Source of the DNA: an uncultured bacterium
GTDB taxonomy: Bacteria > Patescibacteriota > Minisyncoccia > Phycocordibacterales > GWA1-40-21
Length of the DNA stretch: 64,000 bases
Direction: 5' to 3'
Assembly: GCA_903831305.1 (NCBI GenBank)
Contig: CAIKXE010000004.1
Coordinates: 9,026-73,025 of the forward strand
Shown here piece by piece: positions 15,558-44,441 of the stretch (its first letter is position 1; every line of letters begins with the position of its first letter). The notes below the pieces were generated by a model. That model made no database searches. It was not told where the DNA came from and was given only the letters and a program-made list of their open reading frames with translations. Position numbers and translations under genes: made by a program.

Positions 15558-18500
15558 CTAAAATTCTGAATTTGATCCACCGCTCTCCACAACCGTGACA
15601 GAAGGATTATTACTACAATAAGCGACCTTAGTACCATCAGTTACCTTAGCGGTTACTGTATTTAGTCCCGTGGTCCTTAAGAAATAATAATATGTATTAT
15701 CAGTACTTGAGCCAGAAATCGGTGTGCCGTGCGGATTGGCCACCGTAATAGGATTATTTCTATTAATTATATACCAAGAGTATTGATACGTCCCGTCTGG
15801 CCCATAGACAGTAGCGGTCCAAAGGGAGTTAGAACCTCGATTGATGATGGGTGAGCTTGGGCTAGTTAATTCCACAGTACAGCTCAAGTCACTTCCTGGG
15901 ACACCCGAGCAATAAGAAATAGTCGTTCCTTTAGTACAAGTCCAATCCCCACTAATATATGGTGATTGGGAGGGGGTAGCACCCCCTATACATTCACCAG
16001 CAGTAGAGCTACAATAATCACCCTCATCCGGATTACCACCGCAGTTCTCGGTACAAGAGACCTCACAAGCTGGACAACTACCACCACAATCCACATCAGT
16101 TTCGTTACCATTTTTTTGACCGTCAGTACAAGTTGGAGACGGTGGAGTGGTAACACTCAAATTAGGACAACCAGCACTTAAAGTTTCAGTTCCACTATTA
16201 ATAGTGGAAGTAGCGGTATAATTCTTAACAGAAGTATAGGAAGTATTAACGACACTGGTAGTAGCACCATTAATATTCGTCCCTGCCCAAAGATAAGTAT
16301 ACGCTCCAATTCCACCAGTAGAGGTAGCGGTCCAAGTGACGGTTTGACCAGTAAGAGCAGTAGCTGGAGTGACAGAACAAGAAGCAGTAAGATGATCCCT
16401 AACTATAACATTGTTTTCGCTAGCACTATTAACACAGTTAGCTGAAGAAGTTTCCGTCCCCCTTGTGATTGTAGCAATACCATAATATGTTCCAGCGGTG
16501 GCATATGAGGTGGTGACGATGGCGGTGTTCTTGCCTGTCAAATTTGTACCGGCCCAGCTATAGGTATAGGCTCCGACTCCACCAGTAGAGGTAGCGGTCC
16601 AGGTCACAGTATCACCAGTGAGGACAGTAGCTGGAGCAACGGTACAGGAGACGGTAAAGGTTCCTGATTTGGTAGCTGAACAAGAAACTTCATTCCCTTG
16701 ATTAGCACAGGTCCAGCTCCAAGAATCAGTACCATCCGAGACGACACCTGAGGTACCAATACTACATTTTTCCGCCAGGGTGCTTGGGGCAGTGGTTCTC
16801 GTAGTCCCATTTGCACTACCACAAGAAGGATAAACGACTGGTGGTGGGGTAAAGGTTGCATTTATTGTGGTGTTAGTATTCAAAACAAAACCACAACCAC
16901 CAGTACCCGTACAACCACCGCCAGACCAACCCTGAAAGGAAGCACCACTGTCAGGTGTAGCTGTTAAAGCAATAGTTGTGCCGACGGGGAAAGTCACGAC
17001 ACAATCCGTAGCTGCAGGTCCACAGAGAATCATGGTGGTGGCGTCAGAGACAATACCGGGGCCAACTCTGTTTATACTCAAAGTCGCGGTTTCCGGAACT
17101 ACAACAGCCGAAGCCGAACAGGTGGAAACATAACAATTATTACTACAAGACCAAGTCCAAGGTCCAGTAGAACCTCCCACCACAGCACTTGCCGTACCAA
17201 TATCACATTTTTCTGTATCAGTATTTGGGGCGGTAGTTCTAGCAGTACCGTTTGCACTACCACAATAAGTGTTTGCTGGCTCAGTAGGAGTATCCATGCA
17301 AGCCGAACACTGTGCATTTAAACCACCATATCGCCCATTACAGTCCCATTTATATGTAGCTCCTTCGTCAGCAACATCAACAAAATCTCCTGTAGGACAA
17401 GTGTCTTTTGGCACACCACAAGTACCATCCACACCGTTAGTCTGTATCTCACAAGAAGAAGTAGCTGTTTTATTATTTACCGAATCTATAACTTTTATGT
17501 TAGCGATGTACTTGGTCGTGCCAGTGACAATATTCTGCAAGAAAGTGGCTGAAGTAGAACTCAGATCACCATTCCAGAAATAATTTGGATTACCGGTGTT
17601 ATAAGAGGTAGCCAGCCAAGAAATCTTTCCACTTGGAATATTTAACGGATCATCATAATATCTAGTACCAGAACAAGAAACCGTTGGGTCTGGAGTAATA
17701 GTCACATGATTATCACATGAAACGGTATATTCATTGGCATCCTGATCAGTCACTGTCACTTGACCATAATAGTCATCAGCCTCAGAGTATGAAGTAGTGG
17801 CGGCAGCGGAGTTGTTGCCAGTCAGATTAGGGCCTACCCAGCTATAAGTATAATCCCCAACTCCCCCAGTAGGAGTAGCCGTCCAAGTGACTGTCTCACC
17901 AATGGCCGCCGTAGATGGACTAACCGAACAAGAAGCTAAAAGTGGGGCCGCCGGGAAAGTCGTACTACAAGATGAAACGTAGCCAGCCGAGGAACATGTC
18001 CATGTCCAAGGAGCATCAATGCCACCAGTGATATCACTAGGGATACCGACTCTACATTTTTCTTCATTAGTGCTTGGAGCAATAGCTGTGGTGGTGGCAT
18101 TAAAAGTACCACAATAAGCAGGTGGTGGTACAGGTGGTGGCGTGACAGTACAAGTCACACTACTTGTTACTTCAGTACAAGTCCAATTCCAAGGACCGTT
18201 GGCATCACCATTTATAGCACTAGCAATACCGACCTGACACTTTTCTTCAGCCGTGTCTGGAGGAGTAGAACGGTCAATACCAGCCGGACGTACCTCATCA
18301 GCAACAGTACCACAGGCAGGATTACAAGGGTTTGATGGTGCACCGAACACCCCTACTGATAGAGCGGACTCTTTAGCTCCTAGATATGAACTGACCATGA
18401 ATAAATCAGTGGCTGAAGACGTGGCGGTGGTAGAAGTGGCGGTAGTGGTAGCGATGCGATTTGTCCCCTTGTAAACGTAATAACCGGTAACACCAGGGAC

Positions 18501-21500
18501 GGTACTCCACCTAATGGTGGTATAACCACCACACTGGCCAGCCGACTCGGCAGTAATAGTAGTAGGTGGACAAGGGGCCGAAGGCACACCATGGACAGCA
18601 CTAGATGATGTAGACTCCTGAGTGCCGAGATATGATCTGACAGTAAAGGTATCAGTGGTGGAGGCCAATAGTGTATAGGCAAGAACGGGCGTAGTAACAA
18701 GAGGGGTGGTCTCAGTACCACGATAGACTTTGTAACCAGTAGTTCCAGGAACTGGGCGCCAAGAAAGAGTGGTGTACCCGCCACACTGGGCAGCAGTGGC
18801 GACAAGGCTAGTTGGCGCCCCAAGATTAAATTGAGCAGTAACAGTAGTGGAGGTACTCATAGTAAAGGTACAAGTGAGAGCTGTTCCACTGCAGACTCCT
18901 CCCTGCCAACCGACAAAAATATGACCAGCGGTGGAGGTGGCAGTGAGAGTGACGGTAGTACCATTAATAACCGAAGTAGAAGTAGCTAAACAAGTTGCCC
19001 CGCAGATAACTCCTCCACCAGACACTGTACCAGTTCCCGTTCCAGTTTTGGTGACAGTTAGGGTAGAGGTACAAGGTCCTGAAGGAACTGCGGTTGCCGA
19101 ACTCGAAAATGCAGACTCTGCATTACCATTGTCAACGGCTTTAACTCGAAAAGTTTGTCCAGCTGTACTACTTGCCACATAAGAAATGTTGACAGTATAA
19201 CGAAGAAGTGTAAAAACAACATCGTTACTACTGACATAGATATTGTATCCTTTAGCACCAGGAATAGTGCCCCAGTTTAGAGAAATATTTCCCCCGCAAG
19301 AGGCAGAAGTAGTAGCCGTAAGATTAGGTGCTCCAAGGCCAAACCTGGCAAAAACAGTAGTGGTTGTACTCATAGTAAAGGTACAAGTAAGAGCTGTGCC
19401 ACTACATCCCCCTCCTGACCAGCCGACAAAGGCACTACCAGTAGTAGGGGTGGCCGTGAGAGTGACAGTAGTACCATTAATAACCGAAGTAGAAGTCGCT
19501 AAGCAACCGGCTCCGCAAGAGATTCCTCCACCAGACACTGTACCAGTTCCCGTTCCGATTTTAGTGACGGTTAGGGTAGAGGTACATGAAACAGAAGGGA
19601 TAGGTGATACTGAGTTTGAGGCGAGTGACTCGGTTTGACCAACATCAACAGCCTTAACTTGAAAATATTGTCCAGTGCTACTTGCTATGTAAGAAGTGGC
19701 GGGAGTCTCATAAAGAGGAGTAAAAACCACGCCATCAATACTTTTATAAATATGATATCCAGCTGCTCCGGGTATAGCGTCCCAGTTTAAAGAAATGTTT
19801 CCCCCGCAAGAGGCAGAAGTAGTAGCCGTAAGATTAGGTGCTCCAAGGCCAAACCTGGCAAAAACAGTAGTGGTTGTACTCATAGTAAAGGTACAAGTGA
19901 GAGCGGTGCCACTGCACCCCCCTCCAGACCAGCCGATAAAAGTGTTTCCAGGAATTGGATTAGCGGTGAGTATAATATCAGCACCAGGAATTACGGTAAT
20001 ACTTGCATTCTTACAATCGGCATCACAATTAATTACTGGAGTAACAGGAATACTAGAAGTACTGGTGACCAAACCAGTTCCAGATGATCCACTTTTACTA
20101 ACAGTTAAGACAGGGTATGGGAGAGAACAGGTAGTACTGGCACCGCCATACTGACCATTACAAGTCCAAAACGAAGTATCAGCAGTGTCTTCCGTATTAG
20201 TAAAAGTGCCTTCAATAGCACAGGTATTTACAACCAACGGCAGACTACAAGCACCAGCGACGGGAACGGGACAAGGAGCTGATGGCACACCATTTACAGA
20301 ATTTGATGATACAGATTCTTGAGTATCAAGATATGATCTGACAGTAAAAGTATCCGTAGTAGAGGCTAATAGAGTATAGCTAGTAACCGTGGTGGTAACG
20401 AGAGGGGTGGTTTCCGTTCCACGATAGACTTTGTAACCAGTAACACCAGTAACCGGCTGCCAAGAAAGAGTGGTAAAGCCTCCACACTGACCTGGGGTGG
20501 CTTGGGCGGTGAGCGAACTAGGTGCAGAAATAGTTTTATACTGACAATTACTAACAATGGCTGGACAGATAAAAACTTCCGACCAAGTACCACCTACGTT
20601 TGTTATTGTCTCCGAACAAGCAATACCATTTGGAGGAATTTTCCCAGCACAGGGAATATAAGGATCTATTACTACTTCACAAGTAGAAGACGCCGAAATT
20701 GAGGAACTATCAGTAGCGGTTACTTCAACAGTATAACGAGTCTTGGTCTGACTATTATATTCCTGCCAAACAGTATTCAATGAATCACCAGGGAGACTAT
20801 TGAGCAAGCTTGTTGGATCACCCTTCCACGTATAGGTGTAAGGAGCGTCTCCATTGGAAGCAGATGCCGTCCACTGAAGAGCATCACCATAATTTTCATC
20901 ATATGAAGACTTACCTAAATACGAACAACTAACATCAAGCCCAGGCCCAACGACAACTTGATTTGAACAGTTACTAAAACTTTCCTTATTTGCCTGATCA
21001 ATCACTTTTACAGAAAAAGCATATGTCCCAGGAGTAGAATAAACAATAGTGGTATTTGCGCTGCTAGTCGTGGCCATTTCTAAACCACTACGCTCATCTG
21101 TAAAGCGATACCGGTATGGAGCTGTTCCATCTGTAGCCACAGCCGTCCAGGTAACCAGTTGCCCCACCTTAGCTGAAGACCTGTTTGCGGAACAAGAAAC
21201 TTTAGGGCTAGGAATAGGGGTAGGGGTAATGATACACGGAGCGGAAGGCACAGCAGTAGCAAAATTGGAAAAGGGTATGTTAGCCGGATCTACTCCCGTT
21301 ATTAGTGGTTTAATGGCAAAGGAGTCTCCAATGACCGCATTTAACTCATATGAAATACCCGTTACTGTAGAAACAAAAACGGTTCCCGACGCATTTTTTT
21401 TATAAACCTGATAACTTGTTATACCCGGAACAGAATTCCAGTTTAAAATAACAAAACCATCACAAACGTCAGATGTTTTTGCCCTAATCTCTACAGGTGG

Positions 21501-24500
21501 AACAACTGTAAATTTGATATAGCCCTTTCCCCGAGCCACTGTCTGCCAAATTTTAGATTCAAACGTCTCCCAATTTATCTCCACAAATTCAGGTACATAC
21601 CACTGATTATCTACTTGTAAAAGAATATAATACACACCAGGAGTAGATGGAGCAATAAAAGATGCTCCTTGTTTTTCTAAAGAAAAATTATTACTATTCC
21701 AACCTTTTGGACAATCAAACCCCTCGCAACCACCTCCTTCATAGCGCCCATTGTTTATAATATAAGTTTCTTTATTATAAGGGTCAGTACCTACGGGAGA
21801 AGAAGACTGTAAAATATCTGATCTTTTAATAACTAATTGTTGAGGAGCATTACTACAAGCATAGCTTGATAAACTACCGGTAATATAAAACTCTTCATTT
21901 GGTGAAAGGATGAGCTGAGGAGCCGTTATGGTCATGGTTGTCACATTTCCACCGATATTATAAGCTGTATTAGAAGTCCAGACCACACTATTGGCACTAG
22001 CACTATCAAACGCCAAGAAAGAAGAAATCAGAACTAACACAAAAACTAATATAGTTTTCATCTCCTTTCTTTTTCTAAAAATATAAACACTGATAGACAA
22101 AATAATAACAGACAGAACGCCGAGTAAATAAAAGATGGCTTTACTTGTCGTCTGGGTATTCCCAGTCACCTCATTAGTATAGGTCGTGATAATATTATCA
22201 TTATCATCAGTCACTTTTATATCAATAAATATATTTTGTGCAGAAGCTTTTGCCTTTAAGGAAATGTCCAAAGAGATACCTTTGTTAAAATCTAATTTTC
22301 GGCTATAAGCAGACACAATTTCCTTGTTTTCGTTTAGAATATTTATAAACAGATTAAGTGGATTTTCTTTTACTGTCGGACCTAGATCAATATCCAGTGG
22401 GGCTCCGGTATAGACCATGTTAAAATTATAAGTATCCCCAACCTTCAAAATATTTTTGTTCAATGAGACAGATTGGATAGCTGCCACTGACCCCGTCACA
22501 ATGTATCTTGCTAAAACAGTCGGAGTGACTTTAATAGCATCTGAGTTTAAAAAATCAACGGACAGCTCATAAACTCCTGACTTGTCTAAATATGAAATCC
22601 CCCACTGAAATAGTTTTGTAGTACTGGCAGAAATAGTTATAGGATCAAGCCTATAACTAGTAATCAAATTCCCCGATACGGTCCGATCATATATTTTAAT
22701 CTCAGGGGTTAAAACCTGTCCCGTAGTAAAAGGATTCTCTACATTTATGTAAAGTGTTCCTTTCTTATCTGGGGAGAGAGTCGGCCCCTCCTGCAATCCA
22801 TATTTTTTCTCTCCTATCGTTAGATAAGCATCACTGACCTTTAAAAGTGAGTTATCCCCAGTAACTTCAATAAACTTATCCTTCCAAGACAAAGGCATGC
22901 CGGCCGCAGTATAAAACTGAATTTGAATACCTAAGGCTTTTCCTGAAAAGTTAGTCGGCAGTAAATAACTAAAATTAATTTGTTTCATTTCTCCCGCCTT
23001 TAGAAAAACCGGGCCGTATGACTTACTATCATAAATGACGCCCGCCAAACCGTTTCTCCGATACTCCCCAGCCAAAGAAACCGTATATTTTAAATCTGGC
23101 AAATTATAGTCCTTATCATTTTTCAAAGTAAAAGTTCCTGTTACTTCTTCACCAGCGGAATATTTATCCTTGGGCAGAGAAATATTTTTAATCTCCACTG
23201 ATGGCAGATTATTCAGCTCCGCTATCTCAGCCGGAGTAGCCTGAACTTCATAAGTGTCACCATTATTGGTTTGAGCCAAGACCGTATTAGCTGAAAAAAT
23301 TAAACTGCAAGACACTCCAATAAACAAAAATGTTTTCAGCATTTTATTTTTTTTATAAAACACACTGATAATAATTATTGCTAATAAAACCAAAAGCCCT
23401 AACGCCCATAAAACACCAGGAAAGCCGGTCGAAACGTTATTGCCTGTTATTTCGTGATTATAAGAGGTAATTTTGTCACCCTTGGCATCGGTCACTACCA
23501 CATTTACAAATACCCTGCTAGCACCAGCATTAGCGGTCAAAGGAACTTCTAATACGACTCCTTTATTAAAATCTAATTTACCATTATAGCTTGATACGAG
23601 GCGAGCCTCCTCATTCAAAATAGTAACTGATACATTGAGTACATTTTCCTTAAGAACAGAGGGTTGATCTATATCTTTTGGTATTCCCGTATAAACCATC
23701 TTAAAATTAAACTCCTTACCAGATTTTAAAGTATTCTTGTCTAGAGTGATCTGCTGAATAGTGGCCATCGGTCCGCTGATAACATATTTGACCAAGGTGG
23801 TCGGTGCTACTTTCACTTTTTGGCTGTTATAAAAGTTTACGGCCACTTCATAAATACCAGGCTTATCTAAATATGAGATTTCCGAGGAAAAAGATTTTGT
23901 ACCCCTAGCAGAAATTGTAAATGGTTTTAAAGTGGTGGTTTTAAGCAATGCCCCCATGGCTGATTGGTCATAGATTTTAATTTCGGGGGTGAGGGTTCGT
24001 TCCTGATTAAAAGGATTTTCCAGCTTTACATTTATTACCGCTTTCTTAGTGGCTGACAAAGTCGGCCCTGATGATACAGAATATTTATTATTCCCAATAT
24101 TAAGATAAGCATCAGCTATTTTCATCATTGAGTTTCCACCTGTTACTTCAAGAGGTTTATCCTTCCAAACCAAAGGTAGCCCGGTAGAGGTATAGAGCTC
24201 TATGCGGAGTCCCAAGTTTGACCCAGCTACATTACTTGGTAACAAATAACCAAAACTAATTTCTTTTGTTTCACCAGACTTCAAAAAAACAGGACCGTAA
24301 AACCGGCTATCGTATATTTCTCTCGCCAGACCATCAGCCCCATACCCGCCTACTAAAGATATCTGGTATTTCAAATCAGGAATGCTGTAGCCTTTAATAT
24401 TTTTAATAACAAATACTCCCGCTACTCCTTCGCCTTGAGTATAGGTAGATTTGGCTGGAGAAATATCTTTGATCTCAATTACGGGCAGACTGTCTGTCTT

Positions 24501-24632
24501 GGCCAACTCCTCTAGAGTGGTTTGCACCAAATCCATATTTCGGTTTACTGTCTGGGCTGAGGCGCTAGGGAGAAAAAAGCCAGACCCCAACAAAACCAAA
24601 GCCAAGACAGAGATCAAGAGAAGTTTTTTCAT
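15558..24632 (-). CDS. Giant (3024 aa) polytopic surface protein: two paralogous modules of about 430 aa, then a module of about 2170 aa with FN3-like, PKD-like, B-repeat-like and Cys-rich WxWTC repeats
   Basis: A single uninterrupted frame. The N-terminus MKKLLLISVLALVLLGSGFFLPSASAQ is a signal peptide. There are internal TM + KKNK/RKRKE + signal-like segments at residues of about 415-450 and 845-880. PKD-like units carry (T/V)TWTAT.TGG.G.YTY.W. FN3-like units carry GYK(V/I)Y. The DGQKNGNETDVDCGGSC motif is present. Confidence 0.7.
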   Translation of the reverse strand: MKKLLLISVLALVLLGSGFFLPSASAQTVNRNMDLVQTTLEELAKTDSLPVIEIKDISPAKSTYTQGEGVAGVFVIKNIKGYSIPDLKYQISLVGGYGADGLAREIYDSRFYGPVFLKSGETKEISFGYLLPSNVAGSNLGLRIELYTSTGLPLVWKDKPLEVTGGNSMMKIADAYLNIGNNKYSVSSGPTLSATKKAVINVKLENPFNQERTLTPEIKIYDQSAMGALLKTTTLKPFTISARGTKSFSSEISYLDKPGIYEVAVNFYNSQKVKVAPTTLVKYVISGPMATIQQITLDKNTLKSGKEFNFKMVYTGIPKDIDQPSVLKENVLNVSVTILNEEARLVSSYNGKLDFNKGVVLEVPLTANAGASRVFVNVVVTDAKGDKITSYNHEITGNNVSTGFPGVLWALGLLVLLAIIIISVFYKKNKMLKTFLFIGVSCSLIFSANTVLAQTNNGDTYEVQATPAEIAELNNLPSVEIKNISLPKDKYSAGEEVTGTFTLKNDKDYNLPDLKYTVSLAGEYRRNGLAGVIYDSKSYGPVFLKAGEMKQINFSYLLPTNFSGKALGIQIQFYTAAGMPLSWKDKFIEVTGDNSLLKVSDAYLTIGEKKYGLQEGPTLSPDKKGTLYINVENPFTTGQVLTPEIKIYDRTVSGNLITSYRLDPITISASTTKLFQWGISYLDKSGVYELSVDFLNSDAIKVTPTVLARYIVTGSVAAIQSVSLNKNILKVGDTYNFNMVYTGAPLDIDLGPTVKENPLNLFINILNENKEIVSAYSRKLDFNKGISLDISLKAKASAQNIFIDIKVTDDNDNIITTYTNEVTGNTQTTSKAIFYLLGVLSVIILSISVYIFRKRKEMKTILVFVLVLISSFLAFDSASANSVVWTSNTAYNIGGNVTTMTITAPQLILSPNEEFYITGSLSSYACSNAPQQLVIKRSDILQSSSPVGTDPYNKETYIINNGRYEGGGCEGFDCPKGWNSNNFSLEKQGASFIAPSTPGVYYILLQVDNQWYVPEFVEINWETFESKIWQTVARGKGYIKFTVVPPVEIRAKTSDVCDGFVILNWNSVPGITSYQVYKKNASGTVFVSTVTGISYELNAVIGDSFAIKPLITGVDPANIPFSNFATAVPSAPCIITPTPIPSPKVSCSANRSSAKVGQLVTWTAVATDGTAPYRYRFTDERSGLEMATTSSANTTIVYSTPGTYAFSVKVIDQANKESFSNCSNQVVVGPGLDVSCSYLGKSSYDENYGDALQWTASASNGDAPYTYTWKGDPTSLLNSLPGDSLNTVWQEYNSQTKTRYTVEVTATDSSSISASSTCEVVIDPYIPCAGKIPPNGIACSETITNVGGTWSEVFICPAIVSNCQYKTISAPSSLTAQATPGQCGGFTTLSWQPVTGVTGYKVYRGTETTPLVTTTVTSYTLLASTTDTFTVRSYLDTQESVSSNSVNGVPSAPCPVPVAGACSLPLVVNTCAIEGTFTNTEDTADTSFWTCNGQYGGASTTCSLPYPVLTVSKSGSSGTGLVTSTSSIPVTPVINCDADCKNASITVIPGADIILTANPIPGNTFIGWSGGGCSGTALTCTFTMSTTTTVFARFGLGAPNLTATTSASCGGNISLNWDAIPGAAGYHIYKSIDGVVFTPLYETPATSYIASSTGQYFQVKAVDVGQTESLASNSVSPIPSVSCTSTLTVTKIGTGTGTVSGGGISCGAGCLATSTSVINGTTVTLTATPTTGSAFVGWSGGGCSGTALTCTFTMSTTTTVFARFGLGAPNLTATTSASCGGNISLNWGTIPGAKGYNIYVSSNDVVFTLLRYTVNISYVASSTAGQTFRVKAVDNGNAESAFSSSATAVPSGPCTSTLTVTKTGTGTGTVSGGGVICGATCLATSTSVINGTTVTLTATSTAGHIFVGWQGGVCSGTALTCTFTMSTSTTVTAQFNLGAPTSLVATAAQCGGYTTLSWRPVPGTTGYKVYRGTETTPLVTTPVLAYTLLASTTDTFTVRSYLGTQESTSSSAVHGVPSAPCPPTTITAESAGQCGGYTTIRWSTVPGVTGYYVYKGTNRIATTTATSTTATSSATDLFMVSSYLGAKESALSVGVFGAPSNPCNPACGTVADEVRPAGIDRSTPPDTAEEKCQVGIASAINGDANGPWNWTCTEVTSSVTCTVTPPPVPPPAYCGTFNATTTAIAPSTNEEKCRVGIPSDITGGIDAPWTWTCSSAGYVSSCSTTFPAAPLLASCSVSPSTAAIGETVTWTATPTGGVGDYTYSWVGPNLTGNNSAAATTSYSEADDYYGQVTVTDQDANEYTVSCDNHVTITPDPTVSCSGTRYYDDPLNIPSGKISWLATSYNTGNPNYFWNGDLSSTSATFLQNIVTGTTKYIANIKVIDSVNNKTATSSCEIQTNGVDGTCGVPKDTCPTGDFVDVADEGATYKWDCNGRYGGLNAQCSACMDTPTEPANTYCGSANGTARTTAPNTDTEKCDIGTASAVVGGSTGPWTWSCSNNCYVSTCSASAVVVPETATLSINRVGPGIVSDATTMILCGPAATDCVVTFPVGTTIALTATPDSGASFQGWSGGGCTGTGGCGFVLNTNTTINATFTPPPVVYPSCGSANGTTRTTAPSTLAEKCSIGTSGVVSDGTDSWSWTCANQGNEVSCSATKSGTFTVSCTVAPATVLTGDTVTWTATSTGGVGAYTYSWAGTNLTGKNTAIVTTSYATAGTYYGIATITRGTETSSANCVNSASENNVIVRDHLTASCSVTPATALTGQTVTWTATSTGGIGAYTYLWAGTNINGATTSVVNTSYTSVKNYTATSTINSGTETLSAGCPNLSVTTPPSPTCTDGQKNGNETDVDCGGSCPACEVSCTENCGGNPDEGDYCSSTAGECIGGATPSQSPYISGDWTCTKGTTISYCSGVPGSDLSCTVELTSPSSPIINRGSNSLWTATVYGPDGTYQYSWYIINRNNPITVANPHGTPISGSSTDNTYYYFLRTTGLNTVTAKVTDGTKVAYCSNNPSVTVVESGGSNSEF
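18780..20160. repeat. Intragenic tandem DNA repeats (period about 519 bp; 2 full copies plus partial copies) inside the giant gene
   Basis: 19264-19420 and 19782-19940 are more than 95% identical (cccagttta.agaaat.tttcccccgcaagaggcagaagtagtagccgtaagattaggtgctccaaggccaaacctggcaaaaacag...). 18790-19100 is a more diverged copy. These encode the repeated protein unit of about 173 aa, GAPNLTATTSASCGGNISLNW...TLTVTK.GTGTGTVSGGG..CGA.CLATSTSVINGTTVTLTAT. Confidence 0.8.
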
Positions 24633-24773: not shown

Positions 24774-24930
24774 TGAGTAGTAAGGTTTCAGTTCGCCCAC
24801 AAAGCGGACTTAATTTTTTATCAAATAATAAGGATGAGGGGTTGGAAGATATAGTTTAATTTTTTTGTCCGGACCCAACCAGACTAAAAAAATTAAATAT
24901 ATCCTTCCACCCCTCCCAAAAATAAACAAC

Positions 24931-26121
24931 ATGGTAGATCTTAAAGTCTTAAACGCAGTGTTAGAACAACTAGAACAAGAAAGAGGTGTCCCCAAGGAAA
25001 AGATGCTTGAGGCTATTGGCATGTCCCTCGCGACCGCCTATAAGAAGGAATACGGTAAAAGAGGCCAGATTGTCAGGGCTAAATTTGACCTAAATACCGG
25101 TAAAACTGAGTTTGAACAGGTAAAAACCGTCGTAGAGAAGGATAATGTCATTATGCGTGATGAAAGTGAGATTGATTTGACCAAAAAGGAGGTTTTTAGC
25201 CATAAAACCGCTAATAAAGCCAGTGATGTGGAGGAAACTGAAGGTGATTTAGTCTATTTTAACCCGGAACACCATATTCTACTGGAAGATGCTAAAAAGA
25301 TTAAGAAAGGTATTGCCGCTGGTGATGAGATGATTTTCCCCTTGGAAGCCAAGGATGATTTCAGCCGTATTGCCGCTCAAACTGCCAAGCAGGTCATCAT
25401 TCAGAAGCTCCGCGAGGCGGAAAAAGTGTCTGTTTTGGGTGAATATGGCAAAAAAGAAGGTGAAATCGTCACTGGTTCCGTCCAAAGGATGGAAAGAGGT
25501 AACATTTTCATTGATATGGGGCGAGCAACCGCTATTTTGCCATTTGAAGAGCAAATTCCAGGTGAAAAGTATGCCCAAGGTGAGCGAATACGAGCTTATT
25601 TATATAGAGTAGAAGAGACCCCTAAGGGGATTTTCCTCAAATTATCCCGTTCTCACCCTAAATTCTTGGAAGAATTGTTTAAAATCGAAGCTCCAGAGGT
25701 GTTAAACGGTGTTGTGGTTATGAAAGCCATCGCTCGTGAGGCTGGTTCTCGTTCCAAGGTAGCCGTGGAATCCACGGACGCCCATATTGACCCCGTCGGA
25801 TCCCTGGTGGGTCAGCGTGGTGTGCGCGTGGCCACGGTTATGAGTGAGCTGGGTGGAGAAAAAATAGACATTATTGAATGGTCGGCTGATCCTAAGAGAT
25901 TCTTGGAAGATGCCTTGTCTCCGGCCAAAATCCTAAATGTGGAGATAGATGAGACAGAAAAGAAGGCTACGGTTGAAGTTTCTCCTGACCAACAGTCATT
26001 GGCTATCGGTAAAGGTGGACAAAACGTCCGTCTCGCCGCCAAGCTCACTGGTTGGAAGATAGATATCAAGTCCACCGCCGCTCCGGTGGCTGAAGAAACA
26101 GTAGAGAAAATAGAAGAGTAG
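24931..26121 (+). CDS. nusA: Transcription termination/antitermination factor NusA
   Basis: MVDLKVLNAVLEQLEQERGVPKEKMLEAIGMSLATAYKK is the NusA N-terminal domain, followed by S1 and tandem KH regions (GQRGVRVATVMSELGGEKIDIIEW). The start is the internal Met of the track ORF. Confidence 0.85.
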   Translation: MVDLKVLNAVLEQLEQERGVPKEKMLEAIGMSLATAYKKEYGKRGQIVRAKFDLNTGKTEFEQVKTVVEKDNVIMRDESEIDLTKKEVFSHKTANKASDVEETEGDLVYFNPEHHILLEDAKKIKKGIAAGDEMIFPLEAKDDFSRIAAQTAKQVIIQKLREAEKVSVLGEYGKKEGEIVTGSVQRMERGNIFIDMGRATAILPFEEQIPGEKYAQGERIRAYLYRVEETPKGIFLKLSRSHPKFLEELFKIEAPEVLNGVVVMKAIAREAGSRSKVAVESTDAHIDPVGSLVGQRGVRVATVMSELGGEKIDIIEWSADPKRFLEDALSPAKILNVEIDETEKKATVEVSPDQQSLAIGKGGQNVRLAAKLTGWKIDIKSTAAPVAEETVEKIEE

Positions 26122-26179: not shown

Positions 26180-26335
26180 CCACTAAATCCCCACCTTAGT
26201 TAAGGCGGGGTGGTGAGGCTTTGCGAACCGGGGCGGTGTGTCTGTAGGGAGTACCGAGTCAGCGAGGGGAGGTGGTATAAAAAAACGGAAACAAACAAGG
26301 GCGGGAGGGGGTGCAGCACCCCCTCCCGCCCTTTC
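26180..26335 (+). repeat. GC-rich structured intergenic element, family C copy 1
   Basis: Hairpin ccccaccttagttaaggcgggg plus the motif gggagtaccgagtcagcgaggggaggtggt (also present at about 32246 and about 46938). A perfect 15-bp-stem hairpin ggcgggagggggtgc/gcaccccctcccgcc follows. Confidence 0.6.
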
Positions 26336-26337
26336 CG

Positions 26338-26553
26338 CTACTTCCGTGGTTTATGTAGCTTCTTAGTGGCATGCCACCGACGTGGCTTATGCTTTTGGGG
26401 TTTATTACTGTCGCACCACTTCTCAAAGCGCTGCCACCAGTCCAAACATTTACACACCACGATAGCACACAGAAGCACCGCACAACACAGAATACCGGCA
26501 AGAACCATCAGACCAAGGGTTTTAGCCTGCCATGTCATATTATCCCAGGTCAT
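26338..26553 (-). CDS. Small membrane protein (71 aa; single TM, Cys-rich, basic C-terminus), hypothetical
   Basis: A strong SD (aaggaggg) sits 5 nt upstream of the ATG on the minus strand. One TM helix, TLGLMVLAGILCCAVLLCAIVVC. On the minus strand it is followed by the GC hairpin 26302-26332 plus a T-tract, an intrinsic terminator. The overlapping plus-strand ORFs lack such signals. Confidence 0.45.
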   Translation of the reverse strand: MTWDNMTWQAKTLGLMVLAGILCCAVLLCAIVVCKCLDWWQRFEKWCDSNKPQKHKPRRWHATKKLHKPRK

Positions 26554-26712
26554 CTCGCCCTCCTTAACCTTTTATGGTCTTCTATTTTTGCCCCTATTCC
26601 AAATCTATTCTTAATAATACATATAAATGACATAATTGAAAGAGTTTAAACAAGGTTGTCTTATTTCTAAAAATCCGCTATAGTAAACCACATTATTAGT
26701 TTATTAAGATAA

Positions 26713-26800
26713 GAGAGCAAACATATTTGATTTTAAAATGTCTGGCCGAAGTTCTGACGAGGAGATCCGAGGACTTTTAAAATTAAATATGTTTGCTCTC
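26713..26800 (+). repeat. Family A miniature palindromic element, copy 1 (core about 64 bp with 14-bp TIRs, nested in a copy-specific 16-bp inverted repeat)
   Basis: gagagcaaacatattt | gattttaaaatgtctggccgaagttctgacgaggagatccgaggacttttaaaattaaat | atgtttgctctc. The core recurs at 36721-36820 (minus) and 41144-41236 (plus). This copy ends 15 nt upstream of the hppA ATG. Confidence 0.7.
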
Positions 26801-26814
26801 GCAACAATAAAAAT

Positions 26815-28830
26815 ATGTCAGGATACATTTGGTTTGCACTCATCGCTTCGCTCGTCGCTATCATCTATGGTCTGGTTCTCGCCCGATCAATTTTAAAAAA
26901 GTCCGCTGGTAATGCCCGTATGCAAGAGATTGCCAAAGCAATTCAAGACGGTGCCGGGGCTTATTTAAATAAACAATACAAAACTATCGGTATCATTGCC
27001 GCCATTTTGTTTTTGATAATTGGTTTTATTCCTAAACTTGGTTGGACCATGGCTATTGGCTTCCTCGTCGGGGCCTTTCTCTCGGCTCTTGCCGGCTATA
27101 TCGGGATGAACGTTTCTGTCCGCGCCAATGTCCGTACTACTGAAGCCGCCAGAAGTGGCATCAACGCCGCCCTCTCCCTGGCCTTTAAAGGCGGTACGGT
27201 TACTGGTCTTCTCGTCGTCGGTCTCGCTCTTCTCGGTGTCACCGCTTTTTATGCTATCACCGGTAGTGTCACCGCTCTCGTTGGTCTTGGTTTTGGAGCC
27301 TCCCTCATTTCCGTTTTTGCCAGACTCGGTGGAGGAATATTCACCAAAGCGGCAGATGTGGGTGCAGACTTAGTGGGAAAACTGGAAGCGGGAATTCCTG
27401 AGGATGATCCTCGAAATCCAGGCGTAATTGCTGATAACGTCGGAGACAACGTCGGTGACTGTGCTGGTATGGCCGCTGACCTCTTTGAGACTTATGCCGT
27501 TACCTCGGTGGCTACCATGCTTCTTGGTTCACTTCTCTTTGTCGGTTTTCAAGGCGCTATTTTATATCCCCTTGCTATTGGTGGTATTGCTATCTTTGCT
27601 TCCATTATCGGTACTTGGTTTGTAAAACTCAGTGCTGGTAGCCAAAACATTATGGGTGCTCTCTACAAAGGATTGATCGTTTCCGGAATTCTCGCCGTGG
27701 TCGCCTTCTACCCTATTACCAAAATGTTGATGGGCGGTCAGAATCTTTATTCTGTCTGGGACCTTTTCATCTGCTCCCTTGTTGGTCTCGTAGTAACTGG
27801 CGCCCTCGTCGTTATCACTGAGTACTTCACTTCTACCAAATATTCTCCCGTCCAAAGTATTGCTAAAGCTTCCCTCTCCGGACACGGCACAAACGTTATC
27901 CAAGGTTTAGCTATTTCCATGAAGTCTACCGCTTGGCCTTTGATCACTATCGTCCTCGGTATCCTTATTACTTATTATTTTGGTGGGCTTTACGGTATAG
28001 CGGTGGCGGCTATGTCCATGCTTTCTATGACCGGTATTATTGTGGCCATTGATGCTTATGGCCCTATCACTGATAACGCTGGTGGTATTGCGGAAATGGC
28101 GGAATTACCAGAATCCGTTCGTGATGTCACTGATCCTTTGGACGCTGTGGGTAACACCACCAAAGCTGTCACCAAGGGTTATGCTATCGGTTCCGCTGGT
28201 CTCGCTGCCCTTGTCCTCTTTGCTTCTTATACGGAGGAAATTGTCAAAGCCGGCAAAACTATTTCTTTTGACTTAAGCAATCCTTACGTTATCGTCGGTC
28301 TCTTTATTGGCGGTCTTCTCCCTTATTATTTTGGTGCTCTCTGTATGGAGGCCGTGGGTAAGACTGCCGGCAAGGTGGTAGAGGAAGTCCGCCGACAGTT
28401 CAAAGAGATCAAAGGTATTATGGATGGAACCGGCAAGCCAGATTATGCGGAGTGTGTTTCTATCGTGACTGGTGCGGCTATCAAGCAGATGATCATTCCC
28501 GCCCTGATTCCTGTCCTTACTCCTATCCTCATCGTCTTAATTTTTGGTAAAGATAATGGCCTAGTGGTCCTCGGTGGTTTGCTTATGGGTTCTATTGTCA
28601 CCGGTCTCTTCGTCGCTATCTCTATGACTTCTGGTGGTGGCGCTTGGGACAATGCCAAGAAATATATTGAGAAAGGAAACTTTGGTGGTAAAGGTAGCGA
28701 TGCCCACAAGGCCGCCGTCACTGGTGACACCGTGGGTGATCCTTACAAGGATACTGCTGGCCCCGCTATCAACCCCATGATCAAGATTCTAAACATTGTG
28801 GCTCTTATTATTGTCGCGCTGATGGTGTAG
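26815..28830 (+). CDS. hppA: K+/H+/Na+-translocating membrane pyrophosphatase
   Basis: 671 aa with many TM segments. Signature GDNVGDCAG and a DVGADLVGK-type motif. Confidence 0.9.
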
Positions 28831-28837
28831 CTCCCCT

Positions 28838-28900
28838 TTCCCCACCTTAGTCAAGGCGGGGTGTCTGTTCTGACAGACGGGGCGGTTGGTCAGGTATTGA
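28838..28900 (+). repeat. GC-rich hairpin element related to family C (lacks the gagtaccgagtc motif)
   Basis: ccccaccttagtcaaggcggggtg plus the gtctgttctgacagac hairpin plus ggggcggttggtcagg, immediately after the hppA stop. It shares ccccacctta...aaggcgggg and cggggcggt with the element after nusA. Confidence 0.5.
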
Positions 28901-30260: not shown

Positions 30261-30296
30261 TTTTGCATTTTCTGTGTTTTTTGCTAGACTCTAGAA

Positions 30297-31349
30297 ATGA
30301 CAAAATATAAAATAATCAAGACTAAAGAGCTAACGGATTCTGAAGTAGAAATAGAGTGTGAAATAGACGCGGAGGCGGTGGCCACCTACCGACCAAAGGC
30401 AATTGCTAAAATCCAGAAAGACCTCAGCTTACCCGGTTTCCGCCCTGGTCATGTACCGGAAGCCATGCTCGTCAAGCATGTCGGCGAGCTCTATATTTAT
30501 AATGAGATGGCCGAGCTAGCCATTAACGCTTCTTTTCCAGAAATAATTACTGAGAGCAAAACCAGTTTTATCACCATGCCAAATATTCAGATTACTAAAT
30601 TAGCGGACAAGAACCCCGTGTTATTTAAAATCATTGGTCCTGTAATGCCAGAGATAAAGCTAGCGGATTATAAAAAAATCGCCAAGAAAGAAAATGAAGC
30701 TAAGTCAGAGCCCACTGAATCTACGGAAAAAGAATTAGAAGAAACGATAGAGGAGATCCGCAAAAATTTTGCTTTGAGAAACCATACGCATGCCGAGGGT
30801 GAAGAACATAAAGCTGATGAAAAAATGGATCTGCCAGAAGTGACCTTAGACTGGGTAAAGAAACTCGGCGCCTTTGAGACCATGGAGGATTTTAAAATTA
30901 AGATAAAGGAAGGAATACAGAAGGAAAAAGAATTCAAAGCCAAGGATAAAAAGCGTATGGCCATTATTGAAAAGATTTTAGAGGATACAAAAGTCACTTT
31001 ACCTAAAGTGATGATTGAGAGCGAGCTCCATAAAATGCAAGCTCAGTTTGAAGATGATATTACCCGCGCGGGCTTAAAAGTGGAAGATTATTTAAAGCAT
31101 TTAAAAAAGACCCCCGAGGATTTGAAAAAAGAGTGGGCGGGAGATGCGGAAAAGAGGGCCAAGGTCCAGGTCATCATCACCAAGATTGCCTTAGAGGAAA
31201 AGATTGAAGCTGATCCTGAGATCGTAAAAAAAGAAGTAGAAAATCTATTAAAAACTTATAAAGACGCCACTGAGGATCGCACCCGCGCTTATGTGGAAAT
31301 GATGCTCACCAATGAAAAGGTCTTTGAGTGGCTGGAGAATATAAAATAA
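30297..31349 (+). CDS. tig: Trigger factor (short form, apparently lacking the PPIase domain)
   Basis: The N-terminal ribosome-binding domain has the signature GFRPGHVP. At 350 aa it is shorter than the roughly 430 aa typical of TF. Confidence 0.75.
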   Translation: MTKYKIIKTKELTDSEVEIECEIDAEAVATYRPKAIAKIQKDLSLPGFRPGHVPEAMLVKHVGELYIYNEMAELAINASFPEIITESKTSFITMPNIQITKLADKNPVLFKIIGPVMPEIKLADYKKIAKKENEAKSEPTESTEKELEETIEEIRKNFALRNHTHAEGEEHKADEKMDLPEVTLDWVKKLGAFETMEDFKIKIKEGIQKEKEFKAKDKKRMAIIEKILEDTKVTLPKVMIESELHKMQAQFEDDITRAGLKVEDYLKHLKKTPEDLKKEWAGDAEKRAKVQVIITKIALEEKIEADPEIVKKEVENLLKTYKDATEDRTRAYVEMMLTNEKVFEWLENIK

Positions 31350-31351
31350 AA

Positions 31352-32113
31352 TCATCCCCGGTGAAAGGCTTCCCAGACAGCGGTGATAGCCGCTGTTTCT
31401 GCCCGCAGAATATTGTGACCAAGAGAGCAAACCTGAAAATTATTCTCTGTAAATAGCTTCATTTCTTTTTCCGTCCACCCGCCTTCCGGACCCACAAACA
31501 CCGCTACTTTTTCAACTAATATTTGCCCCGCTTCATCATATCCCCGCTCGGTAGCTGAATCACAATTTAATTCACCAGTATGAAAAGCCACACACATTTT
31601 ATTATTTTTCTTGGCCAGCAAAACCGCTGATTCTAAATCAGTAATTTCAAAAACCTCGGGGAGGCTTAGCCGGCCACTTTGTTCACTGGCCTCTTTAACA
31701 ATTTTTTCCAAACGAGGAATATTCAGATCCTTCTTTTCACTACGCAGAGAAATCACTGGGTGAATCTCCGCCACACCAATCTCCGTACATTTTTCCGCGG
31801 CTAATTCAAAATTATTTTTTTTAATCAGAGACAAATAAAGAGAAACAAAATTACGATCCGTCAAATGATATTCTCTAGGTGACTCGGCCAGGACCGGCAC
31901 TACGGTTTTAGCTAAACTCAAAATTACTTCTGTTCTACTCGCGGAAACTATTTCCGCCTTACCCTCAAAACCAGTACCGTCAAATACAATGATAGAATCC
32001 CCCACTTTGAACCGAAAAACGTTTAGGAGCTGATGGATCAAATCAGCATCGGAGATAGTCACCTCCTCATTATTACCCACCTTTTGCGCAATATAAAATC
32101 GGTGTAACCTCAT
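31352..32113 (-). CDS. rsmE: 16S rRNA (uracil1498-N3)-methyltransferase
   Basis: MRLHRFYI... is the typical RsmE N-terminus. A PUA-like N-domain precedes a SPOUT C-domain. The start is the internal Met of the track ORF. Confidence 0.75.
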   Translation of the reverse strand: MRLHRFYIAQKVGNNEEVTISDADLIHQLLNVFRFKVGDSIIVFDGTGFEGKAEIVSASRTEVILSLAKTVVPVLAESPREYHLTDRNFVSLYLSLIKKNNFELAAEKCTEIGVAEIHPVISLRSEKKDLNIPRLEKIVKEASEQSGRLSLPEVFEITDLESAVLLAKKNNKMCVAFHTGELNCDSATERGYDEAGQILVEKVAVFVGPEGGWTEKEMKLFTENNFQVCSLGHNILRAETAAITAVWEAFHRG

Positions 32114-32149
32114 ATGAAACAGTATAGCGTAAAACAAACACAAAACACA

Positions 32150-32280
32150 ACCGCCCCGGTCATCGGAATGACCACCCCGCCTTGACTAAGGCGGGGAAAG
32201 GGAACAGGAGCAGGTAGGGTCCCCTTTCTCCTCCTTGATTAAGGAGGAGTACCGAGTCGGCGAGGGGAGGTGGTGGGGTG
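32150..32280 (+). repeat. GC-rich structured intergenic element, family C copy 2 (between divergent rsmE and clpP)
   Basis: Palindrome ccccgccttgactaaggcgggg. Hairpin ctcctccttgattaaggaggag. Motif ggagtaccgagtcggcgaggggaggtggt, about 65 nt upstream of the clpP ATG. Confidence 0.6.
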
Positions 32281-32338
32281 GTTGTGTTTTTTGTTTCTTT
32301 ATTATAATCTTTACTCATTATCAACTAATATAAAATTT

Positions 32339-32914
32339 ATGTCATATTTAATTCCTACGGTTATTGAAAAGGGGCAAAACGGCGAACGCGCTTATGATAT
32401 TTATTCTAGGCTATTAAAAGAAAATATTATTTTCCTCGGTGGTCCGATCGATGATGATGTAGCCAACATTATTATTGCTCAGCTTTTATTTTTACAAAGC
32501 GAGGATCCTAAAAAAGATATCAAACTTTATATAAATTCCCCTGGTGGTCATGTCTCCGCGGGTCTCGCCATTATTGATACTATGAATCATATCAAAAATG
32601 ATGTCTCCACCGTCTGTGTGGGTATGGCGGCTTCCATGGGCGCGGTGATCCTAGCCTCCGGTGCCAAGGGTAAAAGGTATTCCCTACCAAACTCAGAGAT
32701 CATGATCCACCAACCATTAGGGGGCGCCCAGGGTCAAGCTACTGATATTCAGATTACCGCTAAACAAATTCTAAAATTAAAGGAAAAGTTAAACAAAATG
32801 ATGGCCGAGAGAACAGGCAAAACCTTTGCGGAAATAGAAAAGGATGCTGACCGTGACTACTATATGTCCGCCGACGAAGCTAAAAAGTATGGCATTGTGG
32901 ATAAAGTGCTCTAG
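32339..32914 (+). CDS. clpP: ATP-dependent Clp protease proteolytic subunit
   Basis: [12 protein letters not shown]...[19 protein letters not shown]..., catalytic Ser region GMAASMG, and a His/Asp region. The start is the internal ATG; the track ORF begins at an upstream GTG. Confidence 0.9.
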
Positions 32915-37300: not shown

Positions 37301-37404
37301 TGCGACTAAGCATTTTTAGGGATTTGAAAAGGTTCTCCCATATTTTTGAATCCTGACTATCTTATGGAAGGATGAAAAAATGGGAAACCTATACTGGTCA
37401 TGTA

Positions 37405-37520
37405 ATGACCAAAACTCCCGGTGACCAGGCAAATTTTTGTGACGACAAAAATTTAGCCGAGGGAAAAACTCCCGGCAAGACGGAAAAGTACCCGACGGTG
37501 TAACCGTCAAAATTCCCGGC
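37405..37520 (+). repeat. Three direct repeats of aaaa(c/t)tcccgg at 43-54 nt spacing in a non-coding stretch
   Basis: aaaactcccggtgacc at about 37411, aaaactcccggcaagac at about 37465, aaaattcccggcctac at about 37508. No supported ORF (the track ORF 37316..37540 has no start context and no similarity to anything I recognise). Confidence 0.5.
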
Positions 37521-38064: not shown

Positions 38065-38160
38065 CCGGGAATATAATTTTTGGAGTGCGCATAATTTTCT
38101 GCTGAAAATTTGCTCTCTCTCGCCTACCCGGCTGTGAAGCCTCCAAAATCATATTCCCGG
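38065..38160 (+). repeat. Family B conserved structured element, copy 1
   Basis: ccgggaatat | aattttggagtgcgcataattttctgctgaaaatttgctctctctcgcctacccggctgtgaagcctccaaaatcat | attcccgg. The core of about 78 nt is at least 95% identical at about 45770-45882 (minus) and 57198-57290 (plus). It contains the inner palindrome aattttc tgc tgaaaatt. Confidence 0.75.
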
Positions 38161-42082: not shown

Positions 42083-42096
42083 GGAGCGGGGGGCTT

Positions 42097-44370: not shown

Positions 44371-44441
44371 AAATACAGTTTTTGTCCCCGTTTGCACTAT
44401 AAGCAAATGGAGAGTCCAGAGGAAGCAGAGCCTCTCAAATT

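Follow-up and report, generated by a model that had tools for sequence, protein, structure and literature searches.

A modular palindromic repeat family, probably mobile, between and within the genes of Paceibacteria-type Patescibacteria

The GC-rich repeat that is the subject of this report, here called family C, is in our reading a non-autonomous, insertion-polymorphic palindromic repeat of Paceibacteria-type Patescibacteria that carries no gene of its own, and we would put the probability of this reading at roughly three in four. Its most conserved part, a 29-nt motif, is present three times in the window, by which we mean the whole 64,000-nt stretch of DNA that was analyzed, and an earlier note on this DNA had offered regulatory 5′-leaders, protein-binding sites and dispersed repeats as possible explanations for it, the last of which proved to be the correct one. 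The family is selfish-DNA-like and exerts no control over clpP or rpsO.

Results

The 29-nt motif and the pieces of family C in the window

The GC-rich pattern GGAGTACCGAGTCNGCGAGGGGAGGTGGT matches the window three times, each time on the plus strand and with no mismatch outside the N position, which is A, G and T in copies 1, 2 and 3, respectively, and a match of any kind was found in none of 100 dinucleotide shuffles. The elements to which the motif belongs have a GC content of 53–62%, compared with 42% for the window. The three intergenic 29-mers that the earlier note had reported are confirmed at 26248–26276, 32246–32274 and 46940–46968; its coordinates were right for copy 2 and off by 1–2 nt for copies 1 and 3, and copy 2 lies 64 nt from the start codon of clpP and copy 3 lies 42 nt from that of rpsO, where it had counted 65 and 45. 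The names that it had given to the neighboring genes (nusA, hppA, clpP and rpsO) agree with Pfam, and the GC-rich hairpins that it had placed beside the motif are real on inspection of the sequence. The genes with which the copies are associated, all identified by Pfam, are as follows.

24865–26121: NusA
26815–28830: H+-pyrophosphatase (hppA)
31352–32143, minus strand: RsmE-type methyltransferase
32339–32914: ClpP, with its ATG at 32339
45884–46861, minus strand: XerC/D-like tyrosine recombinase
47011–47271: ribosomal protein S15 (rpsO), with its ATG at 47011

A census of the window with nhmmer gave five family C pieces. They are listed here, with copy 1 and the unit that adjoins it on separate lines.

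6425–6467, minus strand: left-unit remnant of 27 nt, inside an ORF of the PGA_cap family (5560–6600, minus strand); nhmmer match
26181–26241, minus strand: inverted unit adjoining copy 1; nhmmer minus-strand match
26248–26276, plus strand: 29-mer of copy 1, a right-end head and neck without its own hairpin, in the 3′ region of nusA; exact match
28832–28889, minus strand: solo left unit that starts 2 nt past the hppA stop codon; nhmmer E = 3e-10
32145–32276, plus strand: copy 2, full-length and of type A, between the divergent genes rsmE and clpP; nhmmer E = 4.5e-33 and alignment
46846–46971, plus strand: copy 3, full-length and of type B, between the divergent xerC-like and rpsO genes; nhmmer E = 1.3e-34

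Copy 2 begins with the head ACAACCGCCCCG and continues through the hairpins P2 GGTCATCGGAATGACC and P3 CCCCGCCTTGACTAAGGCGGGG, a variable P4 and the hairpin P5 CTCCTCCTTGATTAAGGAGGAG to the 29-mer at 32246–32274 (plus strand), and an extended closing stem spans 32142–32290. Copy 3 begins with the head ACCACCTCG, followed by P2, P3 CTCCTCCTAAGAATAGGAGGAG, a variable centre, P5 and the 29-mer at 46940–46968 (plus strand). For copy 1, the nhmmer match covers positions 23–52 of the right-half profile only. The unit at 26181–26241 that adjoins it consists, when read on the minus strand, of ACACACCGCCCCG and GTTCGCAAAGCCTCAC, the hairpin CCCCGCCTTAACTAAGGTGGGG, and ATTTAGTGG; it has the left-end type common to loci L011, L016 and L033, and an A-C mismatch on its plus strand becomes a G·U pair on the minus strand. 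Copy 1 is a rearranged composite, in which a minus-orientation unit abuts a hairpin-less right-end head and neck.

The solo unit past hppA has the order head AACCGCCCCG, hairpin GTCTGTCAGAACAGAC, hairpin CCCCGCCTTGACTAAGGTGGGG and then AAAGGGGAG. The earlier note had described a hairpin element at 28838–28900, after the hppA stop codon, as related to the motif, and nhmmer bears this relationship out at 28832–28889. Its further statement that the motif is always plus-oriented holds for the 29-mer and fails for the units at 26181–26241 and 28832–28889, which lie in minus orientation. In the remnant at 6425–6467, AACCGCCCC is fused to the hairpin GCCTTAACTAAGGCGGGG, and it is identical at 27 of 29 nt to 26186–26214. 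It is read in frame as the peptide NRPALTKAG near the N terminus of the PGA_cap-family protein, which has a Pfam PGA_cap match. The peptide HPALTKAG encoded by the murC insert described below is the same as that of the remnant.

One other hairpin of this region, located within the span that the earlier note had reported, lies in the gap between nusA and a convergent 71-aa ORF on the minus strand (26338–26553).

26297–26333, no strand assigned: 17-bp perfect GC hairpin

The family C profile gave no nhmmer match at this position, and the hairpin received a terminator-like call in a scan that called none of the family C hairpins. It is probably a bidirectional terminator that lies outside family C.

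The full element consists of two inverted units

The full element is modular and palindromic, with a length of about 130 nt (120–190 nt, and 120–145 nt among the aligned copies). In its basic unit of ~50 nt, the conserved head ACCRCCYC is combined with a neck of 14 nt and a GC-rich hairpin of 9 bp, and the alignment of copies presents the full element as two such units, inverted around a variable centre, with the 29-mer as the head and neck of the right unit. In the aligned copies the order of parts from 5′ to 3′ is head, P2, P3, variable centre, P5 and 29-mer, which puts four hairpins and a closing stem into an element of about 130 nt. The head reads (AACAC)AACCGCCCCG in type A and ACCACCTCG in type B. 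P2 is a small hairpin with the conserved loop TCAGAA, P3 is a 9-bp hairpin of the form CCCCGCCTT-NNNN-AAGGCGGGG or CTCCTCCTA-NNNN-TAGGAGGAG, and P5 is a second 9-bp hairpin, CTCCKCCTT-NNNN-AAGGAGGAG, after which comes the 29-mer with its SD-like end GGAGGTGG. Reverse-complemented, the right end (ACCACCTCCCCTCGCNGACTCGGTACTCCTCCTT) aligns with the alternative left end AACCGCCCCGGTTCGCAGACTCACCACCCCGCCTT of L011, L016 and L033, and the terminal inverted repeats are ~35 nt long and imperfect.

In 16 of 16 aligned copies, the closing stem forms between the head and the end of the 29-mer. Over the whole structure, 94.8% of the cells are paired, compared with 46–62% when the partners are slid, and seven pairs show double (compensatory) changes; P2 and P3 likewise keep their pairing through double changes. 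Covariance with homologs, which the earlier note had proposed as a check, thus finds hairpins that are maintained by compensatory change. The predicted fold of copy 2 has an energy of −78.8 kcal/mol (z = −5.9), a value that its opposite strand reaches about equally, as a palindrome should, and the closing stem has G·U pairs in the plus sense only. The intergenic copies have stop codons in all frames and therefore no conserved ORF. Rfam gave no family match for the whole window at the gathering threshold, nor for the three regions and L002 at E ≤ 10, the latter search returning noise-level miRNA and snoRNA matches only. The sequence CUGAUGA on the minus strand of P2 made a hammerhead or other small ribozyme a candidate, which was rejected on the grounds that the other core elements are missing and that Rfam has no match.

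Distribution and hosts

Copies were collected from a genome collection and a metagenome collection by an exact scan with the 20-mer core ACCGAGTCNGCGAGGGGAGGT, which gave 18 genome loci and 26 metagenome loci. The apparent conservation of this core is partly built in, since the copies were gathered by exact match, and diverged copies are represented by L010, L033, L002 and the rsmE copy. Two loci (L013 and L043) were set aside as chance matches within an Actinomycetota-type coding region, and the remaining 42 all come from lake and groundwater assemblies of Patescibacteria (Paceibacteria-like). The proteins of the loci that carry the NCBI label “Saccharibacteria” are 60–70% identical to those of Taylorbacteria and Paceibacteria loci, so that these labels appear unreliable; given this identity, we regard all hosts as members of a single Paceibacteria-level clade and make no claim of cross-class spread. 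The named S15 sequences closest to that of the window belong to Paceibacterota. The sites in uvrC, upstream of dnaK and upstream of rpsO are occupied in diverged genomes.

Short-read contigs of the window's own species end 70–94 nt upstream of rpsO and clpP, which is the position of the element. The same-species contigs have an rpsO spacer identical to that of the window and a clpP spacer of equal length, and because they match the window in this way they are uninformative on gain or loss. In viral contigs, the 20-mer core had no match, and a 17-base left-end pattern had six matches, all of which were rejected as chance matches inside one phage gene.

Presence and absence at orthologous sites

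Relatives were found by means of the S15 protein of the window, and their loci were then compared. All of the relatives that were fetched share the xerC-like/rpsO gene pair, and it is the spacer between the two genes that varies, both in its length and in what occupies it (the percentages give S15 identity to the window).

Window, S15 100%, 150 nt: type B element
L036, similar length: type B element
L055/L056, S15 97%, 384 nt: type A element with a further nested insert
L057, S15 95%, 249 nt: unrelated repeat
L058, S15 95%, contig starts 108 nt upstream of rpsO: unrelated repeat
L059/L060, S15 94%, 208 nt: unrelated repeat
L061/L062, S15 91%, 57 nt: no insert

Copy 3 has orthologous filled sites in L036 and L045-46 and an empty site in L061, and the unrelated repeat found at rpsO in L057–L060 is the 78-nt family that the window itself carries at 38078 and 57209. 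The spacer between nusA and hppA is 694 nt long in the window, where it contains copy 1, versus 61 nt in L003, a locus whose proteins are ~90% identical to NusA and the H+-PPase of the window; L003 in turn carries a full element before tig, a position at which the window lacks one. In L055 the gap after nusA is only 32 nt. The rsmE/clpP spacer holds a full type A element that faces clpP in the window and a type B half-unit that faces rsmE in L055, and no family C copy is present in the 20 kb compared of either L059 or L061. At none of the window sites that allowed such a comparison is the element indispensable. At rpsO, where the window and L036 were set against L061 across a diverged junction, there is possibly a target-site duplication of 2–3 nt (ATA) and possibly none, and the divergence between filled and empty sites is too great for a target-site duplication to be made out clearly.

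The same comparisons bear on the suggestion of the earlier note that the motif acts as a cis-regulatory 5′-leader or attenuator in the mRNAs of clpP and rpsO. Copies 2 and 3 do face these two genes, whose start codons follow at 64 and 42 nt, the motif ends in the SD-like GGAGGTGG, and the predicted structure is strong, all of which would suit a leader. The rpsO spacer of L061, however, has no element, and a promoter-like block lies on the gene side of the insert.

46976–47013, plus strand: block TTGCAT-17-TAACAT-6-ATG of rpsO, outside the element and conserved in relatives

In the form TTGCAW-17-TAnAnT-6-ATG, this block is kept in the window, in L036, L055, L057 and L059, and at the empty site of L061; in every relative it is located between the insert and rpsO, and it has no SD sequence. 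The arrangement suggests that the block is the promoter of rpsO and that the mRNA is leaderless, a role that we infer, since a simple promoter scan scores the window block below threshold and makes no call there. An arrangement of TGCTAGACT, 6 nt and ATG also precedes tig in both the window and L003. Because the block is downstream of the insert in all relatives, the element is probably located upstream of the transcription start.

Further evidence against a leader comes from the site occupied by the other repeat in L057–L060, from the different and oppositely oriented partial unit of L055 between clpP and rsmE, and from the copies that lie after genes and inside genes. A start codon at SD distance is not conserved among the loci, and no leader family in Rfam is matched. 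The 10-codon uORF that the earlier note had seen before rpsO overlaps the promoter-like block, and its ATG is missing in L036. The leader reading thus founders on the empty rpsO spacer of L061, the promoter-like block downstream of the insert and the copies inside genes, and we consider it scarcely tenable.

Copies inside genes

In uvrC, family C inserts are found in frame between ALI(K/R)EEH and RIEAYD, where the type A insert of L006/L026 is 40 aa long and the type B insert of L038 is 42 aa long. In murC, inserts of ~60 aa are found in frame in the C-terminal domain in L024, L025 and L027; the murC gene of L015 has an in-frame copy as well, and the right half of the element has the same reading frame in uvrC and murC. 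The rsmE gene of L055 contains an in-frame copy in reverse orientation that has three mismatches and is read as TEHNRPTSHHLPSQTQDSSLEKEEISG, and the RsmE of the window has an unrelated stretch at this place. The in-gene inserts of 120, 126 and 180 nt are multiples of three, contain no stop codon and keep the downstream frame. The Pfam domains around them are intact, with Mur_ligase_C ending at residue 412, where the insert starts, and UvrC_RNaseH_dom beginning right after the insert. Intergenic copies have loop stop codons in the very frame that the in-gene copies keep open, and this difference is what selection for read-through translation would predict. From the open frames we infer that the in-gene copies would be translated as inserts of 40–60 residues. 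A profile of the insert peptide, searched against 5.8 billion proteins, found one weak match only (38 aa, E = 0.012).

The uvrC gene of L014 has no family C copy, and at the same site it has a different, 54-nt palindromic linker, so that it is not a clean empty site; the uvrC insertion site seems to be a tolerated hot spot. One of the in-gene murC copies has an element of ~95 nt nested inside it, and a hairpin arm of the element is the target of a second small insert.

The in-gene copies change slowly, as assessed at orthologous positions with whole inserts for murC and with the right half of the element for uvrC. The murC inserts of L024 and L025 are identical at 179 of 180 nt, versus flanks that are 94% and 91% identical (Fisher p about 0.001), and the right half of the uvrC element is identical at 49 of 50 nt between L006 and L038, versus 74% overall. 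We attribute this conservation to recognition by a copying machinery, possibly together with gene conversion among copies.

Nucleotide conservation that exceeds that of the surrounding codons is also compatible with in-gene copies that are untranslated intervening sequences, either excised from the mRNA or skipped by the ribosome, and the closing stem that joins the two ends of the element and the SD-like sequence (GGAGG) near its 3′ end would fit such a role. This is difficult to square with intact in-gene copies that are stop-free multiples of three (120, 126 and 180 nt) and keep the frame, since a stop-free copy would be unnecessary if the copy were removed and since the intergenic copies do have loop stops in that frame, and no ribozyme or intron family is matched; we find this reading barely credible. 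A more specific version takes the in-gene copies and the ~95-nt nested murC element as a new bacterial intervening sequence that is spliced out or skipped, with the 29-mer as the recognition site of a Patescibacteria-specific enzyme, and in this version the closing stem and the SD-like 3′ end would be used for removal or bypass. We regard it as very improbable.

A possible structural role kept by the host

The 29-mer and the stems are near-invariant across genomes whose proteins are 60–70% identical, and they change more slowly than the flanking coding DNA. Many copies are located between divergent or convergent genes, short forms lie 25–50 nt past the stop codons of folD (L009), uvrA (L014) and a gene of L041, and copy 1 follows nusA. 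These observations speak for a structural sequence that is kept by the host, either as a protein-binding site, as an insulator or terminator, or as a stabilizer of mRNA 3′ ends. The hairpins, however, are not followed by a T-run, and the element is therefore not a classical intrinsic terminator. The dispensability at all comparable window sites and the 20-kb stretches of L059 and L061 without any copy also weigh against a host function, the in-frame copies in uvrC, murC and rsmE are hard to reconcile with an intergenic role, and some copies are rearranged or decaying (copy 1, the remnant at 6425–6467 and the rsmE copy with its three mismatches). We judge a host-kept structural sequence to be improbable, with the consideration that the shared sites and the conservation of the 29-mer could reflect either a host-selected function or old insertions homogenized by gene conversion.

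How the copies could be made

The mobile repeat that we favor would be copied by an enzyme supplied in trans that recognizes the hairpins together with the invariant head and neck, and such recognition would explain how the 29-mer is nearly unchanged between genomes with 60–70% protein identity. Insertions would survive only where they are tolerated, that is, in spacers, at gene ends and in surface linkers, and stop-free copies inside genes would then be translated as peptide inserts, as in the Rickettsia palindromic elements (RPEs). Any effects on neighboring genes, such as termination, insulation, or the supply of an SD sequence or a −35 element, would be a by-product. Family C copies adjoin the ends of genes and precede promoter-like blocks; they occur in either orientation, and some of them are solo units or have been rearranged.

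No transposase was found in the window, and the window and the 20-kb neighborhoods of its relatives contain housekeeping genes only. Among 147 ORFs next to copies, Pfam found housekeeping families only, with no recurrent transposase or Y1_Tnp, and tblastn with approximate queries (IS608 TnpA and E. coli RAYT) found no Y1 transposase in 510 kb of genome fragments. Nor did the genome fragments searched (the window, the 147 ORFs and the 510 kb) yield an autonomous parent element that shares the ends of family C. With no mobilizing gene found, it is on the presence/absence patterns only that mobility rests.

Within the mobile-repeat explanation, one mechanism of copying would be the recognition of single-strand hairpins by an HUH/Y1 enzyme, as in REPIN-RAYT and IS200/IS605-like systems. 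The hairpin units, which have a conserved 5′ head and form inverted doublets, are like REP doublets, there is no obvious target-site duplication, the G·U pairs of the closing stem occur in the plus sense only, and the three 29-mers of the window have one orientation. Set against these points are the missing Y1 transposase in the window, the 147 ORFs and the 510 kb (a weak test, given the approximate queries), hairpin mismatches that have no strand-specific wobble (two G-T versus two C-A), the occurrence of the element inside genes, unlike REPINs, and a REP signature GTAG that is not conserved in the element. We hold the HUH/Y1 mechanism to be a tentative possibility, and a doubtful one.

Four other candidates were considered and rejected. 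Integron attC sites form same-orientation arrays that separate cassettes beside IntI, and they have R″/R′ cores RYYYAAC and GTTRRRY; the family C copies are 6–15 kb apart among housekeeping genes, and on direct reading their ends misfit the core sites. Against these sites, and equally against a XerC/D site, a TIGR array and a DGR, stand the housekeeping context, the dispersed rather than tandem copies, and the recombinase gene next to copy 3, which the empty site has too.

Discussion

The very small genomes of Patescibacteria are usually said to contain few repeats and little mobile DNA, and in our full-text searches of the literature such repeats were not described in this group. Family C adds a repeat family that shows gain and loss among close relatives and that breaks short-read assemblies, so that it would help to explain fragmented assemblies in Patescibacteria. 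The 40–60 residues that its in-gene copies would add to the essential MurC, UvrC and RsmE proteins would help to explain lineage-specific insertions. For annotation, it means that GC-rich islands beside promoters are here not regulatory leaders. The near-invariant 29-mer and the second, nested element point to at least one trans-acting enzyme that can be searched for, and the 29-mer could serve as a marker of this clade in lake and groundwater metagenomes.

A comparator with similar behavior is the RPE family, which consists of palindromic, multi-copy, gene-less elements of ~100–150 bp in the reduced genome of a host-dependent bacterium (PMC10969869), and which is inserted between genes and also in frame inside unrelated housekeeping genes, where the ORF is kept open and a conserved peptide is added (PMC10969869). 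Family C is also palindromic and hairpin-forming, multi-copy and gene-less, it is of comparable size and likewise belongs to host-dependent bacteria with reduced genomes, and it occurs both between genes and in frame within them (uvrC, murC, rsmE and the PGA_cap gene); it is by these in-frame copies that it behaves like RPEs. Its hosts, however, are Patescibacteria, an unrelated clade, and the likeness that we claim is one of behavior, with no relationship in sequence to be expected. Family C further differs in being modular, with solo units, inverted doublets and composites, in its strictly conserved 29-nt end, and in having a hairpin arm that is hit by a second small insert.

REPINs are described as short GC-rich imperfect palindromes with a conserved head that occur singly or as inverted doublets, mostly at gene ends. 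The inverted doublets and mosaics of family C at gene ends resemble REPINs and BIMEs, and the variable linkers, the conservation within a lineage and the insertion hot spots are likewise shared with REP, REPIN and BIME sequences. Unlike REPINs, family C has copies inside coding genes, does not conserve the GTAG head and has no RAYT that we found, and its units are longer (~50 nt), with a second small hairpin that has the loop TCAGAA. A third likeness is to MITE-like elements such as Correia, ERIC and Nezha, which family C resembles in being small, non-coding and multi-copy, with imperfect terminal inverted repeats of ~35 nt and insertion polymorphism, as well as in its occasional in-frame fusions and in that it may supply a promoter or SD-like sequence; it differs from MITEs in having no demonstrable target-site duplication and no parent insertion sequence that was found. 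The likeness to the leaders of S15 and other ribosomal proteins consists of one structured copy upstream of rpsO, and family C differs from them in having no Rfam match at E ≤ 10, in that a close relative lacks it in the rpsO spacer, and in adjoining unrelated genes. Given that no RAYT or parent insertion sequence was found and that the element is not strictly extragenic, family C is not a demonstrated member of the RPEs, the REPINs or the MITEs, and it is instead a new family of a known kind.

An element nested within family C hairpins

A second, smaller element lies within the family C repeats of several related Patescibacteria loci, where it splits the arm of the family C hairpin. It is about 95 nt long and AT-richer, and it takes the form ..CATCATTACATGATCAGTACACCTTTCAC...CATTTGGGTCCC..CCCAAATTTCAA, with the following occurrences in the fetched loci (L-numbers).

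Occurrences of the nested element of about 95 nt
L002, 2093-2187
L002, 3364-3458
L055, 9786-9880
L036, about 660-760, minus strand
L015, about 4030-4130, inside murC
L033, 10716-10881
L033, about 5820-5912, reverse
L014, about 40-97

The insertion point is CCCC / CCTT, with the single middle base replaced, and the orientation relative to this target is constant in all cases. The ends are asymmetric and carry small subterminal hairpins, and from these end features it looks like a separate homing element. In the Taylorbacteria locus L015 it sits in frame within the family C insert of murC, and it is absent from the murC inserts of L024 and L025. The window itself may hold a relative, judging by a 32-nt stretch on the minus strand (37377-37408, GGTCATTACATGACCAGTATAGGTTTCCCATTTT) that is 84% identical to the start of the element; this stretch is flanked by tRNA-Pro and the ORF at 37558-38043 and lies outside any family C hairpin.

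Inserts and changes at genes of relatives

The L015 murC gene has other peculiarities as well (about 5060-5190 and about 5390-5420), with unrelated sequence and a frame change in place of the P-loop region GTHGKTTT, and with an additional GC-rich in-frame insert of 11 aa (NPPSQCFGETR) that L025 lacks. These anomalies could mean that the gene is a pseudogene, that it was misassembled, or that it took up more small inserts. In uvrC, the linker that holds family C in loci L006 and L038 holds a different insert in L014, 54 nt long (about 5020-5075) and composed of two inverted GACCAAAG..CTTTGGT-like units. In L055 a type B family C half-unit (3512-3562) has the terminus AGGAGGAGATG. Because rsmE is called as starting at the ATG of this terminus, its SD sequence and start codon may both come from the repeat in that genome.

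Other repeats and features of the window

A 78-nt repeat, TTTTGGAGTGCGCATAATTTTCTGCTGAAAATTTGC...CCTCCAAAATCATATT, has two window copies (38078-38155 and 57209-57286) that are 97% identical, and its relatives occupy the spacer between the xerC-like gene and rpsO in loci L057-L060, exactly at the window's family C site. A further family is represented by a 98-nt pair (42096-42193 and 44440-44537, 91% identity) and a site at 43643-43667; its core hairpin, GGGAGAACGCGTGAGTTTCTCCCCT, occurs three times.

Between nusA and hppA the window has a spacer of 694 nt, compared with 61 nt in the close relative L003, and the whole block is therefore lineage-specific. Within it (26336-26815) a minus-strand ORF at 26338-26553 encodes a putative membrane protein of 71 aa that gave no Pfam match. 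Also on the minus strand, a 3024-aa ORF (15558-24632) with Flg_new_2 matches contains long internal direct repeats around 18.5-20.5 kb, in units of about 510 nt and about 80% identity, and its product is probably a giant surface protein.

Starts of rpsO and tig

Finally, rpsO and tig share a conserved -10 box, similar to TGCTAnACT, at a distance of exactly 6 nt from the ATG on its 5' side, and neither has an SD.

Positions of the -10 box before ATG
Window, 46976-47013, rpsO
Window, 30270-30299
L003, about 4200-4230
L055, L057, L059 and L061, upstream of rpsO

This spacing, together with the absence of an SD, suggests that this lineage commonly has leaderless mRNAs.
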